A stretch of DNA of 41,524 bases from a virus (IMGVR_UViG_2648501334_000009:1-41524); one strand, 5' to 3'; shown: positions 3,501 through 12,153, counted from the first letter of the stretch. Numbers and translations are program-made. The notes: generated from the sequence alone by a model not told the origin.

Positions 3501-4121
3501 ATGGATATTTGGGAAAAAAGTAAAATTATTATATTTTTGCTTTTCGTTATTCCTGGTTTTATAAGTATGAAAGTTTATAGTGTTATTCATCCTAATACCG
3601 CTTTTGATACTTCTAAAGCGATTGTGGAAATTGTTTCTTATAGCTGTATAAATTACGCAGTATGGTTTGCTCCTATATATTTTATAGAATCTGAGGGTGT
3701 ATATCTCAAACATCCTGTTCTTTATTGTGCTTTATACTTGGTGATTTTATTCATTAGCCCAATATTGTTAACGATATTTTTCTCTTGGATGCGAACTTGG
3801 CGTTGGTTATGTAATTATATGCCACATCCTACCGGAAGAGCTTGGGATTATTTCTTTGGGTTAAAAGTCCCCTGTTGGATGATTATTACGCTAAAAAATG
3901 GTAAAAAAATAGCAGGCAAGTTTGGGGCTAACTCATTTGCTTCCAGTGCACCAGAGCCAGAGCAAATTTATCTTGAGGAACATTGGGTTCTAAACGATGA
4001 TGGGGGATTTGAACGCCCTCGAGTTTCAACATTAGGAATATTAATTTTAGGTAACGATATAGAAAATTTAGAGTTTTTCCGTTTTGAACTACCAACATGC
4101 AATAATGGAGAAAGCAACTGA
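3501..4121 (+). CDS. Hypothetical integral membrane protein (accessory moron)
   Basis: Three N-terminal hydrophobic helices followed by a soluble C-terminal domain; very AT-rich; on the opposite strand to the flanking early operon; AGGGG ribosome-binding site. Confidence 0.55.
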   Translation: MDIWEKSKIIIFLLFVIPGFISMKVYSVIHPNTAFDTSKAIVEIVSYSCINYAVWFAPIYFIESEGVYLKHPVLYCALYLVILFISPILLTIFFSWMRTWRWLCNYMPHPTGRAWDYFFGLKVPCWMIITLKNGKKIAGKFGANSFASSAPEPEQIYLEEHWVLNDDGGFERPRVSTLGILILGNDIENLEFFRFELPTCNNGESN

Positions 4122-4264
4122 TGTCAGATACCAAAAGAAGTTATAAGGAAGATGGATATACCCCTATTGAAAAAGGGTATCAGCCTAAAAATGACTTGGC
4201 TAATAATGGTTTTCAACCTTCGAAGCAAACTTCCCAGCCAGCTCCACCACCCAAAAAACCATAA
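4121..4264 (+). CDS. Small hypothetical protein, 47 aa (below the ORF-track cutoff)
   Basis: ATG overlaps the stop of the upstream ORF (TGATG); translates to MSDTKRSYKEDGYTPIEKGYQPKNDLANNGFQPSKQTSQPAPPPKKP; same AT-rich block. Confidence 0.35.
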   Translation: MSDTKRSYKEDGYTPIEKGYQPKNDLANNGFQPSKQTSQPAPPPKKP

Positions 4265-4570
4265 CTAAGTATTGGGGGGAATAATTCCCCCCAGCTCTTT
4301 GCTATCCAGTACCACCACGGTAAAGCCCAGCTTTCGCAGACGTTCATGTGTGCGCAACTGGTCAGGTCGTGGTGGTTTGCCGGGGGATTTACATTCAACG
4401 AAAACGATGCGACCGCCGGGTAGCAGAACAATGCGATCCGGTACCGAGCGGCGACCGGGAGATACGAACTTAAAGGCAACCCCGCCAGCTTTTTTCACTT
4501 CAGCGACGAGATGCTTTTCGATAAGGCTTTCACGTTCATAGGCCATCATCCACCGCCTTACGCTTTTCAC
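4265..4570 (-). CDS. VRR-NUC domain nuclease
   Basis: PD-(D/E)xK-type core 'PDRIVLLPGGRIVFVECKSPG'; size and context typical of phage VRR-NUC proteins. Confidence 0.75.
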   Translation of the reverse strand: MKSVRRWMMAYERESLIEKHLVAEVKKAGGVAFKFVSPGRRSVPDRIVLLPGGRIVFVECKSPGKPPRPDQLRTHERLRKLGFTVVVLDSKELGGIIPPNT

Positions 4571-4757
4571 GCATGTTCTGCATCAGGCAAGAATCAGCCC
4601 GGCGCTCTCTCCAGTCCTGATTAAGTTCGTTACGTGATTCACGGTTTGCTTTGGCCCAGACCTTCGCCGCCCGGTCATACTCGCCGGACTGCTCAAGGCG
4701 CAAAGCCTCCTGTGCAGTCCGATAATAAAGCGGACTGTCCCGATATTTAAATGACAT
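4536..4757 (-). CDS. Small hypothetical phage protein
   Basis: Start chosen at the internal Met (MSFKYRDSP...) with a GAGGT ribosome-binding site 8 nt upstream; overlaps the VRR-NUC start. Confidence 0.45.
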   Translation of the reverse strand: MSFKYRDSPLYYRTAQEALRLEQSGEYDRAAKVWAKANRESRNELNQDWRERRADSCLMQNMREKRKAVDDGL

Positions 4758-4773
4758 AGGGGTTACCTCAAAT

Positions 4774-4799
4774 AAATACCCCTGCATTTGCAGGGGTAT
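4774..4799. terminator. Perfect palindromic hairpin, candidate bidirectional terminator
   Basis: AATACCCCTGCA-TT-TGCAGGGGTATT, with A/T runs on both sides; lies between the TIR-like gene stop and the next gene. Confidence 0.6.
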
Positions 4800-4822
4800 T
4801 TACTTTTTAGAAAAATGATTGA

Positions 4823-5584
4823 TTAAGATGAAGCGTTCGCTATTTGAGCTTCATTAAATGTGAAACCGGCCTGTTTAAGGCGCTGGATTAAGCGAGGTAC
4901 AGTTTCTCGAACATGATCATTAAAGTTGAGATAAAGAATACCCGCAGCATCAGAAGGCTGTTCAAGGTGTTGCTTCTGCAAGATGACCACGTTACTGCGG
5001 CCGAGTGATGATAACAACATCCCCATTTCTAGAACTACATTTTGACGAGCCCTGGGCAGGGCTGCTTCTTGACCGTCTCTTTTGGAGTATCCCACATCAT
5101 CGGGAGTGAGAAGAACAATGCCGAAACGAGTCGCTGTCTGCCCTTGACCAATTTCACGCTCCAGTTCTTCAATTATCGTAAGTCCAGTACCACCTGTATT
5201 CTGCAAAATAAAATGATCAGGTAACCCAAGCTTATGAAGAATGAGCTCAAGCTGCTCTTTTGCTGCATGGTCGTGACCGTGAACGATGAAAATCTTTTTG
5301 GCTGGCTCTTGAACCGGGGCTGGCTGAACTCGTTGAGCTGGCGCGTTACCCAAGTGTTCATTAATAATGGCTTCAACCTCTGGTTTTGCCGCTTGTGAGC
5401 CTTGAATCAAAATCGTTCCGGTGTGGTAAAGCGTTATGATGGCACCATTACTTAAACGATAACAATCATGACCGGCTTTGTTTTCTTCTCCGGTAACATC
5501 AAATCCGGATTCGACTAAAAATTGACGAAAAGTTTCGACAGGGTGTGGGTATTTGAGAGCCATTTCATTGAGATCCTGCATCAT
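4823..5584 (-). CDS. Two-domain protein: N-terminal unknown domain plus C-terminal TIR-like (PF10137/Cap12-type) domain; candidate defence effector
   Basis: C-terminal motifs 'KKIFIVHGHD', 'FGIVLLTPDD' and 'RARQNVVLEMGMLLSSLGR' match my recollection of the TIR-like family consensus, with a conserved Glu in the ExG motif; AGGAAA ribosome-binding site; AT-rich 53-bp upstream spacer. Confidence 0.55.
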   Translation of the reverse strand: MMQDLNEMALKYPHPVETFRQFLVESGFDVTGEENKAGHDCYRLSNGAIITLYHTGTILIQGSQAAKPEVEAIINEHLGNAPAQRVQPAPVQEPAKKIFIVHGHDHAAKEQLELILHKLGLPDHFILQNTGGTGLTIIEELEREIGQGQTATRFGIVLLTPDDVGYSKRDGQEAALPRARQNVVLEMGMLLSSLGRSNVVILQKQHLEQPSDAAGILYLNFNDHVRETVPRLIQRLKQAGFTFNEAQIANASS

Positions 5585-5637
5585 TATTTTCCTATAAAAT
5601 AAGCAATATTTAGCAAAGCAGCAATGACAGCGAGCAG

Positions 5638-7713
5638 CTAATCCTTACGGTAGTGGTACGCCTCAAAACCGCCAGCGTTCAGTGGGATATCGGGCGCCCA
5701 TTCGGGGTTAGTGGAGAGAAGCGCGGAAAGCACTTTATCGTTGAAATCTTCTGTGTCAGGTGCTTCGGTGATCACCTCGTCGTGTACCGTCAACACAATG
5801 CTGTAACCGGCATCTTCGATAAGCGGCATGTTTCCGGCCAGAACGTCGCGGGCGGCCGCCTGGGTGACGTTCTCCACCAGCTTTCCGCCGTAGGTTTTGA
5901 GTCGTTGCCATTTACGCGAATAAGAGTTAACACCCATATAGGTGATATTCCCTTTTTCGATAACCGGAGACGGGTAGCATACAGCGCGTCCGGATGGTAG
6001 CTGTATGCGCAGCCACGCGCCATCACGTCGGATTTTAAGATAACCGCAATACAATGTTTTTTGCGGTGTGGCGATTGCTGTGCGGACAGTGCGCTCCAGC
6101 TCGTACCAGAAATCGCAGGTCGCCGGGTGCGCCCTGCGCCACAGGCGCTTGAGCGAGTCACATGCGATGAATACACGCTCGGAAAGGCCAAAGGTCGACT
6201 TACGTTTAACCGATTCGTCGTACCAGCTTTTCGCCTCGCGGATAACATCGCGGGGAATGTTTGGCAGTGCGGCGTTCGCCAGCTCGTCGAGATCGAGACC
6301 GTAAACCAGAGCAAAAGTGATGAAAGCCGATACACCACCTCCATAACCCAGACCGAGTTCCATGACTTTACCGATCTGACGCATGTGTTTATCAACATCA
6401 TCTGGTGCAATATCGAAAGCTTTTGCATACGCCAGTTTATATAAGTCCGGACCCGTTCCGGCGTCGTACTCTCTGAATGCATTCAGTTTCCATTCTTCTC
6501 CCGCCAGCCATGCCAGCATACGGCCTTCAATGTTTGACAAGTCACTTACCACCAGTTTTTTGCCTGTTGGCGCGATAATGCAGCCACGTAACGCTGAACT
6601 GGTTAGTTCCATGATATTGTCAAACAGCAGGTCTGCACATCCGGCTTTCAGTGCTTCGATGCCTTCGTCTATTTGTTCCTGTTTTAGTGAAGGGCGGGGA
6701 AGGTTCTGGGGCTGGAATAGCCGTCCGGCCCAACGACCGGTACGTGACGCCCCGCAGAACTGTAGCGTACCGCGTAAGCGCCCGTCGTGGCTTACGCCTT
6801 TCATCAGTGCCTTGTATTTACTGGTGCTGGTAGTACTGGCTTGCAGGCGGATAGCCAGCAGTTCTTTCACGGCAGATGGTAAATCGGGGTCGGCAATACG
6901 ACGTTCCAGAGTACTGCGTTGCATGTCTGGTAGCTCCACACTGTAGGATTCAACAATGTGCTTAATCAACGCGTCCCGTTGTGTGGCTGCCTGCACTTCG
7001 CCATCAGTCATTTCCTGTGTACGCTTTGCCAGGCGCTTTTGCTCCTGGTCTACCGCTTCGATCGCAGCGCGCGCGAGTTGCATGTCCATGCAGACGCCCC
7101 GGTCGTTGATCTGCTGATCACGATGCCAGAGCGCCAGCTCTGTCCCCTGATAATTCCACTTCGGCAGACGTTTATAGACTTCGCGCATTGCCTCGATATC
7201 CAGTCCGGCGTAAGCAACAAAGCGCCGCCATTCTTCCGGGTGGGTTTTGCTGGTGGCACGGCGCAGTTTGCTGTTTTTCGGGCGGGGCTTACAGAACAGC
7301 TGGATCAGCGCTTTACCTTCTTTGTCCTTCGCTTTGTCTTGCGGGACGCCGAGTATTTCGCAGAGTTCCCCCAGAGACCCCGGGAGACCATGCGCCAGCG
7401 CCTGTACCATTGTGTCTCGCCAGCGTTTGGCACTACCTGCAACAACACATTGGGGAGTGTGCAGCAATGCATGGCGCAACATGGTGCGATCGAAATGGCT
7501 GTTGTGTGCATATATTAGTACGCTCTCATCGCTGAGAGCTGTCAGTAGTCGTGTCGGCAAGTTATAGTCTGTGGTTAAATCGTGTACGCTGACGGGGTCT
7601 TCGTCGATTGCCCATGCGAATAACATGATTTCGACTCCTTCTGCATAGACATGGGTGCCGTTTTTTATTGGGATTTCGCTGAAAGTTTCGAGGTCTAACC
7701 AAAGTTTTTGCAT
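5638..7713 (-). CDS. Family A DNA polymerase with N-terminal 3'-5' exonuclease domain
   Basis: Exo I motif 'LDLETFS' near the N-terminus; motif C '[10 protein letters not shown]' and '[13 protein letters not shown]' near the C-terminus. Start placed at the internal Met (MQKLW); the tracked ORF extends to 7755. Confidence 0.8.
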
Positions 7714-7745
7714 CAAGTAAGGACCCGTTGGATTTAATAAATAAA

Positions 7746-7768
7746 AAGCCGCCAAAATGGCGGCTTTT
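7746..7768. terminator. Hairpin terminator downstream of the SIR2 gene
   Basis: AAAGCCGCC-AAAAT-GGCGGCTTT flanked by A and T runs. Confidence 0.55.
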
Positions 7769-7789: not shown

Positions 7790-9292
7790 TTAATATGATA
7801 AATAATCATACAGGCATAAAAGTCGCCTGTATTGGGTATCAATTTTATGCCCTGGTTTTGTTAAATAATCTCGTAGTTGTTTCAATGAAATAGTATCGTT
7901 TAGTACGCAATACATAATCGTGTTAGCAACTTTATACTCTTTCGTTTCTTTTAGTATTTCATCAATAGACACAGCCTCACTCTTACATGTTTTAATTCGA
8001 GAAAGGTTACCAATGATTTTATCTAGCTGCCGTTTTCTGTATGTCTCGGTATTTTCTAGTTCAGGGCAGATAGAACTAAAAGCGTATATTGGAAAGTGTT
8101 CGCTATTAGCTATGGTTTGCTTATTCAGTAATGCGATAAGCTGAGAGTTTGCTTCGTCAACTATTTTAAAATAGTTCTGTATCATTTCAGATTTTGTTTG
8201 ATAAACATATTGTACGGTTCTTTCTGAACCAACAGCAATGACCATTTCATCATTGCGAAGTTCATCTAAATTTTCTGTAATTTTAACCTTTATCTCACCA
8301 CCACTTTTGATGGTACTCCAAACTTTTTGAACCTTTCTTATGTCCATTGCGGATACTGGCAAAACTAGTCCAGAGATGGCATCATATACAGCTTTGTAAT
8401 TGTTTGTTTTTATTTTGTTTATTCTTATGATAGACATGCCTTCTATATCTATGTCATGCTCCGTAATTTCAGTTGACATGCTGTCTTTTTCGTATTCAAC
8501 CAAAAGGAAATTATCTTTTATCCTTTTTGCAAGTTCGGTATTTAAGTCAACGTATGAGAATATGGTTTTTAATAAGTACTTAATGTTTTTATCGCTAATA
8601 CTATACCCTATAAATATGATAGGGTTGTGTATGAATATTGAGAGTAATTGAGCGCGAATTAACTCATATTTATTGTCGAAGTTTGCGTAGTCTTCACCTG
8701 TGATAATTATGTTGTTAGGATCACTAACACAGCCATGTATTTTGTAAACTGAACCGTATGGGTTACTTAAAAGAATGTTGTTACCAATCAGTGGGTTAAA
8801 TTCGAAGATATTCTCTACGAGTTGGTCGTAGTTTGTTGTAATGATGGAGCCTATGTTTTTTCTTGTTTTTATTAAGCTGTTTATTTCCTCCATCATTGAC
8901 TCTTTTATCTTTAGGTCTTTAAGTATTGAAGTTAAATAAATTTTGAATCGACTTAGTTTTTTTCCTTTTTTCATGTGCTCATAGAAAACATCATTGATGT
9001 CTTTGAACTTACCGTTACGATCTTCTGCCAGCTTTTTATTAAAAATATCTTCAAGTTTTGTAGCTAAGATATCATATCGATAGTCGTCACCTTCTAGGCT
9101 TTCAGCTTTCAAATCGTAGTAAAACTCAGCATTACCGGTTAGTTCCATTGCGACACTCAAAAGAAGACCATCCCAGCTAAATGAGTTTTCTAGATACCGT
9201 AGGCTAAATCCTGTTCCAATGAATAGAACAGGGTGGTTTTTATAGTGACTTACAAACTCTTGGATTTCCATACCGATTCTCAAAGTTGACAC
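7790..9292 (-). CDS. SIR2-domain protein (sirtuin-like NAD-binding fold) with an uncharacterised C-terminal domain; candidate anti-phage defence protein
   Basis: Motifs 'PVLFIGTGFS' (GxGxS loop), 'ITTNYDQLVE', 'VYKIHGCVSDP', 'IFIGYSISDKNIKYLL' align with the Thoeris ThsA SIR2 domain as I recall it; strongly AT-rich; GTG start with an AGAGG ribosome-binding site; own terminator. Confidence 0.7.
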   Translation of the reverse strand: MSTLRIGMEIQEFVSHYKNHPVLFIGTGFSLRYLENSFSWDGLLLSVAMELTGNAEFYYDLKAESLEGDDYRYDILATKLEDIFNKKLAEDRNGKFKDINDVFYEHMKKGKKLSRFKIYLTSILKDLKIKESMMEEINSLIKTRKNIGSIITTNYDQLVENIFEFNPLIGNNILLSNPYGSVYKIHGCVSDPNNIIITGEDYANFDNKYELIRAQLLSIFIHNPIIFIGYSISDKNIKYLLKTIFSYVDLNTELAKRIKDNFLLVEYEKDSMSTEITEHDIDIEGMSIIRINKIKTNNYKAVYDAISGLVLPVSAMDIRKVQKVWSTIKSGGEIKVKITENLDELRNDEMVIAVGSERTVQYVYQTKSEMIQNYFKIVDEANSQLIALLNKQTIANSEHFPIYAFSSICPELENTETYRKRQLDKIIGNLSRIKTCKSEAVSIDEILKETKEYKVANTIMYCVLNDTISLKQLRDYLTKPGHKIDTQYRRLLCLYDYLSY

Positions 9293-9382
9293 GTAATACC
9301 TCTATAAAAACAAATAGCCGTAAAAATTCCAATAGCTTTTTGGATCTCGCCCGGCGTGTAACCGGGCGTCTATGAAGAAGGG

Positions 9383-9931
9383 TTAAATCAGTGCTTCAGC
9401 ATCAGCACCTTCGCTGATATCGTCGAAATCGTCAGCGCTTGCCACTCCGCCGCCAGCGAATGCATCGCCGTCTCGCAGGAACTGGACTCCGCCGAGTGAG
9501 GCATTAATGCGTTTACCGAAATTATTGTCCTGTGCCCAGATATCGATAACGGCGTTTACATAGCACCCTGCATAGGGACGTCCATCAGCCTGAATTAGTG
9601 GCGAACGATCGCGATCAAGAACAGCTGGGCGCGCTTTGTTAGCAGCGTTCAGGAAGAAATTGCCGGGAAAGCCTTCATACTCTGCTTTTTCATCACCATC
9701 ATGCAGGCACAGATTGAGTTTTTTCTCCAGCTGGTTATAAATGGACTCCCACTTCTCCCCCCATTTTTCCTTCGCTACCTGCTTCATAGCTTTACGGATT
9801 TCTTCCAGTTGTGGGTGTTTGGGAGACATTAAAAATACTGCGGAGAAACGCGGATCGCCTTCGCCGTTTACAGTTTTAGCTTCAAACAGAGACGGGAAGG
9901 CCAGACGAACATTGTTCAGCTTCAGTTTCAT
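9383..9931 (-). CDS. DUF2815-like phage protein, putative ssDNA-binding protein
   Basis: N-terminus 'MKLKLNNVRLAFPSLFE' and acidic C-terminal tail; sits between the DUF2800-like nuclease and the polymerase as in related phage replication modules. Confidence 0.55.
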   Translation of the reverse strand: MKLKLNNVRLAFPSLFEAKTVNGEGDPRFSAVFLMSPKHPQLEEIRKAMKQVAKEKWGEKWESIYNQLEKKLNLCLHDGDEKAEYEGFPGNFFLNAANKARPAVLDRDRSPLIQADGRPYAGCYVNAVIDIWAQDNNFGKRINASLGGVQFLRDGDAFAGGGVASADDFDDISEGADAEALI

Positions 9932-9946
9932 GGGGATTTCCTTAAA

Positions 9947-11248
9947 TCAGATGAGGTCTGCGGTTAGCGTATCGTCGGATACGTCGTCGAAATCATTTAC
10001 AGGGTTGATATTGAGTGCGGGGCGTGGGTCTGACTCGGGAACGATGGTGGGTTTACCATCAGCTCGTGTTATCAGTGCCTCGACTTTTGACCAACGGCGC
10101 GGACTGGCCTTTTTGATAAGTTTTTCGGCTTTTGTGGGACTAATAAGTTTAAAGTCGAATACTTCTTCAGTTTTGTACCTGAACTGGTCCTTCAGAAGTG
10201 CGCGAGCTGCCTCTTCGTCACTCCAGGCCCGGTTACCTTGTTTTCCTGTTACCAGTTTAAACCCCGGTACCGGATGTCCGGCATTGAGTTCATTGTGAAC
10301 CCGGTCCCGTACTGCCTTTAGCCAGGATTCAATAAAGTCGGCCTGGCTATAGATCTCTGCAAGCTGCTCAATGGTTAACAGAGGTACACGTGCGCTGGCA
10401 TTGGTGATTATTTCGCTGACAGGCTTTGTCAGATCTTCAAAATCGCTGGCCGCTGTTTGTAAATGCTGCATTTTCTGGGCAGTGCAAATAGCTTTTGCTT
10501 TACAGAAGCGGCACTGTTTTTCTCCAGGTATGAAGTTTTCCAGTGGTAGTGTCTCAATGCCTTCGCATTCAGCAATATTGAGAACAAGGATCGCACTGGT
10601 TGCGGCCTCCAGCGCCCGTTTACCGAAAGACTGAAGTTCCTGTACGGTTAACGACCATTCTGAAACGTGGTTGAGCCTTGGTTGGTGAATAAATAATCTT
10701 ACAGTTTCAAAGTCATACAGCATGCTGAATTGTTCAAGCGCACCCAGAGCATACAGTTGTAGTTGCTCATTTTGTTCTGCATCAATGCGGACGCCTTTGC
10801 CATATTTCAGGTCGTGGATTTGTAATTCGTTACCAGCGATGATTATGCCGTCGGCAGTTCCGAAAGATTCTTCCACACCCGTTATATGTGAGAAATCAAC
10901 ACGTTGTTCAACCAATAGTTCATTATTCTTTGCAAGAGTCCAGACCGTATCAACATACCGGCCGACGGCTTCGACCATTTCATCATCCACCTGTGGGCCA
11001 GATGTATCATCAGGATTTTCGCGAAGGGGGTATGAGCCTAGAAACATAGAAACATTGCATCCGGCGTAGTGTTCCGGGTGGCTTTGCCTGTTTCGTAGAA
11101 CTTTTTCAGCAAGCGCGTGCGCTGCAGTGCCCTCGATTGCAAAAGTTGTTTCTTTATCCGGTTGTGTGGCCTCCAGCGCCAGACTTCCTGGGCAGCGCAT
11201 CCATCGATGCGCTGATGATGGAGAAAGTTGTGCATGAACGTCTGGCAT
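9947..11248 (-). CDS. DUF2800-like PD-(D/E)xK nuclease (Cas4-like)
   Basis: N-terminus '[15 protein letters not shown]' and a C-terminal cysteine cluster '[10 protein letters not shown]'. Confidence 0.6.
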
Positions 11249-11250
11249 GA

Positions 11251-12153
11251 TTAACCCTCCAGTGCTTTTTCAGCCAGGGTGATTACTTCAGCGAGATTTT
11301 CATCCGTTACTTCACCAAGTTTCCTGGCTCCCTGTTTTTCCAGAATTGCAATAGCTTCTGCCCGGTAACCCCCTTTTGCTAACTGGAGGATCAACCCTTC
11401 AGCTTGTTTGCGTAGTGCCGCGAAATCAATTGTATGGTCATCTTTGGCGTCATTATTCTGGCTGGAATTTGCTGCGTCTCTGCGTGCAAATTCTTCCTGC
11501 AGCTGAAGGTACTCAACACGGTTGATCTCGATATGGCCTTTTTTAAGCATCTCGTTCAACTTGCGTAAGGTGTGGAGTTCACTGGCTGCTGTGCCGGATA
11601 CATTTTTGACGTAAAACGGCCCCGTGCGTTCTCCATCTTTGTTACTGGCCTTTTTCGGCTTAACTTCATCACGCCCATCTGCAGGTGCATCAAGTAGCTG
11701 CTCGGCAAAAGCACGTCGCTCGCCGATGGTTGGCAGGTCGTCCCAGAACTTAAGAATGTTACGGGACAGGTCCAGGAGAGCAGGTTTAAGCAGCTCCCTG
11801 GCTCGTTTGACGCCCTGTAATGCGCTGTCGAGAGCATCAATCTGAACTACTCGTTTATCGCCTTCAGCATCACGGTAGGCAACAGCACGTTGCAGCATGT
11901 CTTCTGTGATAGGGGTGGCTACCGGGTAGAAACCAGCCAGTGCGATAACGTCGCTGAACTCAAGATCATCCAGTGTCATTGCCGCTGACATGTTTTCAGC
12001 TTCAGTTGCTGTATCCCGACATTCCTGCACTCGTGAAATCGTGTCAGGATGCATAACAATGCCTGATGCCATTGTGCGGATAAGACGTTCAAGCAGCGCA
12101 TTATGTTGTGCCAGAAGTTGATTATTAAGTTCTAGACTGGTTTCTAAACTCAT
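11251..12153 (-). CDS. Hypothetical phage early protein
   Basis: 300-aa ORF in the early-left operon with no recognisable motif. Confidence 0.45.

Follow-up and report, generated by a model that had tools for sequence, protein, structure and literature searches.

What a TIR protein does inside the early replication operon of a prophage, and what might switch it on, is the question raised by a gene in a viral sequence of 41,524 nucleotides (IMGVR_UViG_2648501334_000009:1-41524), here called the window. TIR NADases figure centrally in bacterial, plant and animal immunity, and for most of the stand-alone TIR proteins of bacteria the activation cue is the open question. The stretch 4774-5637 spans three items: an open reading frame on the minus strand, a spacer of 53 bp and a downstream hairpin. 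Together with the parts of the encoded protein and the two flanking genes they are found at the following positions, given in the direction of transcription:

5638-7755, minus strand: gene of a family A DNA polymerase (PF00476), the upstream flank, outside the cassette.
5585-5637, minus strand: AT-rich spacer (GC 0.34) from the polymerase stop to the start of the TIR gene, containing a ribosome-binding site.
4823-5584, minus strand: coding sequence of the two-domain protein, 253 amino acids, from the ORF list (stop codon 4823-4825).
5345-5560, minus strand: TBP-like N-terminal domain, amino acids 9-80, the proposed sensor.
5300-5344, minus strand: Pro/Ala/Gln-rich linker, amino acids 81-95, variable, with pLDDT below 50.
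4826-5299, minus strand: TIR domain of the Cap12/PycTIR type, amino acids 96-253, the proposed NADase effector.
5027-5029, minus strand: codon of E186, the predicted catalytic glutamate of the motif R180-x-N182-x-x-x-E186, as aligned to SfSTING.
4773-4802, minus strand: hairpin terminator directly after the gene, with 13 perfect pairs and a T-rich tail called on the plus strand.
4536-4757, minus strand: gene of an ANR-family regulator, the downstream flank (RefSeq; GAGG site; junction alignment).

The reading frame starts with an ATG that has an AGGA 8-11 nt 5' of it, and the identical CDS in RefSeq carries the label 'TIR domain-containing protein'. Compared with sister alleles, dN/dS is 0.02-0.04 for the TIR part and about 0.2 for the N-terminal part; this is a real gene under purifying selection. 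The start of the downstream neighbour needs a correction. The mechanical ORF list places it at the ATG at 4787, within the loop of the hairpin, while the true start of the ANR gene is the ATG at 4757, which is preceded by a GAGG ribosome-binding site and is also supported by the alignment of the junction.

The window is a prophage. The stretch with the TIR gene is found with 100% identity in the chromosomes of two E. coli strains, TUM1880 and ECONIH2, in both of which the prophage adjoins yfhL. The gene order runs from an integrase through an HTH protein, an SNF2 helicase, DUF6338 (on the opposite strand), a VRR-NUC/PDDEXK nuclease and the ANR regulator to the TIR gene, and continues with the family A DNA polymerase, a SIR2 protein, an Enc34-type SSB and DUF2800. 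Beyond DUF2800 follow a LexA-like repressor, cro, a VapE primase, Q, and the lysis and structural genes. The first-pass annotation had remarked that no cyclase or other signalling partner lies nearby, and this is borne out: neither a CD-NTase nor a pyrimidine cyclase was found beside the TIR gene in the RefSeq annotation or in PADLOC and Pfam scans of its neighbours.

Comparison with related prophages reveals that the gene is cargo. Most relatives of the prophage are without a TIR gene, and in such relatives (e.g., DEC5E and 85.0412) only 5 bp, and no gene, separate the polymerase stop from the ANR start. This tight junction indicates that the gene and its hairpin are an insertion, of about 870 bp and extending roughly from 4767 to 5637, between the polymerase and ANR genes. 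The GC content is 0.45 in the insertion and 0.53 in the flanks. The present allele occurs in 10 of the 159 complete E. coli genomes that have the polymerase and ANR flanks of this prophage. The same comparison bears on the reading that the gene benefits the phage itself, in replication or nucleotide metabolism, with the TBP-like domain recruiting a TIR-like Rossmann domain to primers or other RNA/DNA hybrids, where it might act as an N-glycosidase or as a nuclease forming 2',3'-cNMP. Such a role is unlikely, since most relatives lack the gene and keep the tight junction, and replication can thus dispense with it.

A palindromic terminator had been noted after the gene, and it is indeed a strong one. 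The hairpin scan finds 13 perfect pairs around a loop of 4 nt, and the RNA of the gene strand folds with 16 pairs (ΔG -25.9 kcal/mol, z -5.15), 0 of 200 shuffles being as good. On the gene strand the hairpin is followed by UAUUUAUUU. The terminator at 4773-4802 looks bidirectional, as the scan scores the plus strand too. Equivalents are found after the sister alleles: in phage 689R2 a hairpin of 8 pairs and other sequence, with the U-tract UUUUUUAUUU, and in the Providencia allele a hairpin of 12 pairs, again of other sequence, with the U-tract UUUUAUCUU. That sister alleles in the same slot are followed by different hairpins points to the terminator as a functional part of the cassette.

The AT-rich spacer upstream was likewise correctly seen. 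Its 53 bp have a GC content of 0.34, falling to 0.20 in the 30 nt beside the start codon, compared to 0.53 in the flanking genes. All that it shares with the corresponding spacer of the sister allele is a TGCTrAAT block and the AGGAA site; one may speculate that the block shared by the two alleles is an extended -10 element. A scan of the spacer (5585-5637) found no sigma-70-like promoter. The nearest match to the consensus, CTGACA-16-TAAAGT at 5759-5732 (9 of 12 positions), falls within the polymerase gene, and shuffled sequences contain promoter-like sites at least as often as this region does. Of the claim that the gene is transcriptionally insulated, the part concerning the terminator stands; a promoter of its own, for which the scan found no convincing candidate in the spacer, is conjectural.

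Expression independent of the early operon is plausible. The TIR gene is co-directional with the early replication operon and lies inside it. As there are only about 15 nt between the hairpin and the ANR start, the ANR, VRR-NUC and SNF2 genes need read-through or antitermination to be transcribed. The terminator would, following the usual moron logic, halt only those transcripts that are initiated in the cassette.

The TIR slot is one of several places in the replication module where cargo is found. Between the polymerase and SSB genes the window has, at 7790-9292 on the minus strand, a gene for a 500-aa SIR2_2 protein with GC 0.33; in relatives this slot is occupied by a 209-aa ORF on the plus strand, by an antA/AntB antirepressor or by Nmad5. 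The slot between the SNF2 and VRR-NUC genes (3501-4264, plus strand) contains a DUF6338 membrane protein of 206 aa (GC 0.34) and a 47-aa ORF. No PADLOC match was obtained for the content of this slot, and its genes are followed by a terminator-like hairpin on the plus strand at 4272-4294. In relatives the slot is taken by a cytosine methyltransferase, a Rha regulator or hypothetical genes. A fourth slot, between the ANR and VRR-NUC genes, is empty here and is filled in E. coli relatives by DUF4406 (nucleoside-deoxyribosyltransferase-like), DUF7446 or a SAM-dependent methyltransferase. DUF4406 and DUF7446 were considered as alternative occupants of the TIR slot and rejected, as they lie between the ANR and VRR-NUC genes.

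The SIR2 gene at 7790-9292 is only 2.2 kb away from the TIR gene, across the polymerase gene, and this could be taken to favour a reading in which the TIR protein makes a signal for the SIR2 protein, the two being a split Thoeris-like pair, or in which it is a counter-defence protein that destroys or sequesters immune nucleotides of the host. The SIR2 part does match ThsA weakly (E 3.6e-18), but this match is confined to the SIR2 core, and over its full length the protein is the single-gene candidate PDC-S25 (E 4e-158). TIR alleles are also found without SIR2, in phage 689R2 and in the strains Sx181, L6-21 and LH50-c, so the pairing was rejected; what defines Thoeris, ThsB together with ThsA, is not seen for the TIR gene. 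A counter-defence function is further disfavoured by the family being found mostly outside phages, and both variants of this reading must be regarded as improbable.

When it comes to the protein itself, the C-terminal part had been recognised as TIR-like from three motifs, and all of these are present (KKIFIVHGHD at aa 96-105, LLTPDD at aa 158-163 and RARQNVVLEMG at aa 178-188). A profile search with PF10137 gave a match of aa 97-222 to positions 1-118 of the 119 in the model, with an E-value of 5.8e-31 and 107.4 bits, well above the curated gathering cut-off of 24.7. The structure model has the TIR fold, with a pLDDT of 50-87 and thus moderate confidence in this domain. Among solved structures the best match in both sequence and fold is Cap12/TIR-STING (SfSTING; PDB 7un8 and 9lmq), the PycTIR structure 8jsj is matched by profile (E 4.8e-3), and the SpbK filament structure 9phb occurs among the fold matches. 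Sequence, active-site residues and fold thus agree in placing the domain in the Cap12/PycTIR subfamily, as had been proposed, and neither the PF10137 match nor the alignment of residues with SfSTING assigns it to a non-TIR Rossmann family.

In the HMM alignment R180, N182, E186 and D212 correspond to R78, N80, E84 and D110 of SfSTING, E186 being aligned with the glutamate of the SfSTING motif RDNVVFEFG, and all four are unchanged across 48-49 homologs. The active site of SfSTING consists of R78, N80 and the catalytic E84, while D110 is contributed in trans by the neighbouring TIR domain, and activity requires filament packing (PMC9402430). The conservation of these residues, including the Asp of the PxD motif, leads to the expectation that the present protein is activated by packing of its TIR domains. 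From its family membership the C-terminal domain is a predicted NADase. The residues shared with SfSTING are the ones that bind and cleave NAD+, which is a further argument against a function in replication.

The protein resembles several known systems without being identical to any of them. With Cap12/TIR-STING of CBASS it shares the PF10137 subfamily, the R-x-N-x-x-x-E residues and the trans-acting Asp of PxD, but it has no STING domain, and its sensor would be an N-terminal TBP-like domain, not a C-terminal receptor for cyclic dinucleotides. The NCBIfam equivalogs NF050172/NF050171 give only 32 bits against a cut-off of 450, and only over aa 153-239, and there is no CD-NTase nearby. PycTIR of Pycsar belongs to the same TIR subfamily (PADLOC PycTIR, E 3.8e-10, aa 66-233); this match is essentially to the TIR part, however, the N-terminus is another one and a pyrimidine cyclase is missing from the neighbourhood. 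Single-gene precedents exist in other TIR subfamilies. Swarozyc (DUF4062) is a one-gene TIR-like NADase that recognises the phage portal directly and depletes NAD+. SpbK of ICEBs1 is also a single-protein TIR NADase triggered by a phage protein. Like these two, the present protein is encoded by one gene on a mobile element, but they have other recognition domains as well as other TIR domains, and their trigger is the portal protein of the phage.

The gene belongs, as judged from a full-length match to the PADLOC model PDC-S35 (PDLC05003; E 1.7e-109, aa 11-253 on positions 3-245 of 245), to a family already catalogued as a computational single-gene defence candidate. It also matches phrog_16442, of unknown function (E 1.1e-77). 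No study naming the PDC-S35 family or testing it experimentally was found in the literature that could be searched. The same two-domain architecture of about 250 aa recurs in more than 3300 clusters, in many phyla from Enterobacteria to Acidobacteria, and the family is located in prophages, integron cassettes and defence islands, mostly outside phages. Homologs from Vibrio, Burkholderiales and Acidobacteria are 65-70% identical to the present protein in the TIR domain and 22-30% in the N-domain; the conservation of the TIR domain is unusually high. Both the length and the sequence of the linker differ between homologs.

Family members are found in 47 of 5426 complete E. coli genomes. The present allele accounts for 10 of these; the other 37, including IAI1, display another pattern, with about 76% DNA identity in the TIR part only, which is the pattern also seen for the allele of induced phages. 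Phages in which this sister allele is found are vB_EcoM-606R2, 689R2 and 611R5, and its protein is 72% identical over the whole length, with 89% for the TIR domain and 46% for the N-domain. Compared with the allele of LH50-c (6003-6746) the gene looks mosaic, with dS falling from 0.49 for the TIR part to 0.11 for the N-domain part, a contrast within one gene that suggests intragenic recombination.

Outside E. coli, the gene occupies this slot again in Providencia, where a member of the same prophage family is integrated at the same attachment site, while Salmonella has it in a different slot of the same replication module. The homolog of V. parahaemolyticus is a one-gene superintegron cassette between attC-like repeats, and a further one follows an IntI-like integrase, alongside Mrr and PemK cassettes. 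A Burkholderiales homolog adjoins a transposase, a Ralstonia homolog a recombinase and RHS/CDI immunity genes, and the Halomonas-type homolog has DUF4062, a reverse transcriptase and toxin-antitoxin pairs as neighbours. The last of these loci (8863-11622) contains, in order, the TIR homolog, DUF4062, a 115-aa ORF, the reverse transcriptase, ParDE and Phd/YoeB, and looks like a compact defence island. Across the contexts examined (prophage slots, integron cassettes, the transposase-flanked site and the defence island) no conserved partner gene was found. The suggestion that the gene is a stand-alone unit without a cyclase is thus supported, its neighbours differing everywhere and single-gene contexts being found elsewhere. 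That homologs occur as integron cassettes or in defence islands, with no replication genes beside them, again speaks against a role in phage replication.

The N-terminal part had been described as an unknown domain and possible ligand sensor, and here the description has to be changed. The domain is TBP-like and of the type found at the N-terminus of RNase HIII and in RnlA. It has the TBP-like half-fold (β-α-β4-α), and its nearest structural relatives are nucleic-acid-binding or RNase-associated domains. A domain of this fold points towards a macromolecule as the cue, be it nucleic acid or protein, and away from a cyclic nucleotide. The two best PDB matches of the N-domain profile are RNase HIII (E 0.023) and LsoA (E 0.3), and the N-domain has a Y-x-TG-x-x-x-QG motif in common with both. 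The Pfam model RnlA_toxin matches 9 of 25 family members (best E 8.9e-5) and DUF3378 matches 5 of 25; the N-domain of the present protein does not reach the Pfam thresholds, with 15.5-17.7 bits against 27 for DUF3378 and a score below the cut-off for RnlA_toxin. At the level of sequence the evidence for kinship to RNase HIII and RnlA is thus concordant but weak. The N-domain of RNase HIII (DUF3378) and the NTD/NRD of RnlA/LsoA are related in fold, but the effector in the present protein is a TIR domain and not an RNase.

The counterpart domain of RNase HIII binds RNA/DNA hybrids specifically, through contacts that include Arg32, Tyr43 and Gly52 (PMC4132731). In the PDC-S35 family position 43 is R or K in 88% of the members, position 53 is aromatic in 100%, and G62 is invariant. 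From their nearly equal spacing, and not from a superposition, R43, aromatic 53 and G62 may correspond to Arg32, Tyr43 and Gly52 of Ta-RNase H3.

The N-domain is also found on other proteins. A word-indexed protein search with its profile returned 5 matches, too few for a census of architectures, while an exhaustive search returned 880 proteins. Architectures were taken from the best 150 of these 880, many of which are fragments. Among these 150, apart from TIR fusions, the N-domain is joined to RNase H (PF00075, E 5.4e-42), to the kinase-like part of a dCTP deaminase (PADLOC dCTPase, E 1e-46), to a multi-pass membrane region, and to itself in tandem. The dCTP-deaminase fusions (proteins P0157 and P0211), in which the N-domain precedes the kinase-like part, thus share a front-end module with the present protein; the deaminase defence depletes dCTP, however, while the predicted depletion here is of NAD+. 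The occurrence of the N-domain with different effectors, several of which are defence enzymes, marks it as a reusable front end. Another recurrent group among the same 150 consists of proteins of about 160 aa, with the N-domain followed by a short unknown C-terminal domain that in several cases ends in ...IHIRKL. Neither Pfam nor PADLOC matches the C-terminal part of this group (P0139, P0154, P0172, P0193, P0198, P0214, P0223, P0228 and P0244).

Two kinds of cue could be read by such a domain. In one reading the TIR effector is the same, and assembly of its TIR domains might be driven by contact of the N-domain with a phage protein such as a portal, a capsid protein or a replication protein. 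Swarozyc, activated by assembly with the phage portal, is a precedent for this, and the N-domain of the present allele is acidic, with a net charge of -6 compared to a family mean of about -0.8, which disfavours binding of nucleic acid. The N-domain has further diverged much faster than the TIR domain, with identities of 22-46% against 66-89%, and two types of N-domain are found on an almost identical TIR domain in E. coli prophages, which matches what would be expected for recognition of specific targets. Against this stand the nucleic-acid-binding and RNase-associated kin of the N-domain and its fusion to RNase H, as well as the conserved basic and aromatic positions. Nor does dN/dS give any sign of positive selection; diversifying selection on the N-domain was considered and rejected, as omega is about 0.2 and selection purifying. 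A phage protein as the trigger is a possibility to be taken seriously, if not the probable answer.

The other kind of cue is a nucleic acid. The N-domain could be a bacterial pattern-recognition module for the direct sensing of RNA/DNA hybrids, or of some other intermediate in the replication of invading phages, and could have been plugged into several suicide or depletion effectors, namely the Cap12-type TIR NADase, the dCTP-deaminase-type enzyme, the membrane effector and the HEPN RNases RnlA/LsoA. This broader proposal is tentative throughout, for the cue as well as for the range of effectors. A difficulty for it is that a hybrid sensor would need to spare the replication of the prophage that encodes it. 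As the cue of the present protein the hybrid is slightly favoured, on tentative grounds, and a phage protein is about as likely.

On balance we favour the reading that this is a moron-type cargo cassette, gene and terminator, inserted in an early replication operon, and that its product is a one-protein NADase acting in abortive infection or superinfection exclusion; the joint reading is put forward as a prediction, and only a little on the probable side. Direct support exists for what the domains are, for the conservation of the catalytic residues, for the cassette being an accessory insertion and for the autonomy of the single gene. The predicted course of events would start with the N-domain meeting a phage cue, preferably an RNA/DNA hybrid or a similar intermediate of replication or transcription, alternatively a phage protein. 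Binding would gather protomers so that the Cap12-type TIR domains, judged by their conserved residues, could pack together, and D212 of one protomer would then complete the R180, N182 and E186 site of its neighbour, as in TIR-STING filaments. The assembled TIR domains might then hydrolyse NAD+, as would be expected from family membership, and thereby stop both the infected cell and the phage. Exclusion would need expression in the lysogen; that no promoter was found and that the gene lies inside the operon are points against the proposed role.

The prophage family, a common one in E. coli, thus offers cargo at least three slots in its replication module, and in the window two NAD-related defence candidates, TIR and SIR2, flank the polymerase gene. 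A predicted TIR NADase with a TBP-like front end is a combination not previously described, within a family that had been catalogued. Its RNase HIII-type front end gives a concrete hypothesis for the activation cue, and this hypothesis is strengthened by the recurrence of the domain in fusions with RNase H, with a dCTP-deaminase-type enzyme and with a membrane effector. If the trigger is a phage protein, the protein adds one further case to a known theme. If the sensor-module proposal is true, PDC-S35 would be a one-protein, nucleic-acid-sensing NADase that operates without a second messenger, an Argonaute guide or a phage-protein trigger.
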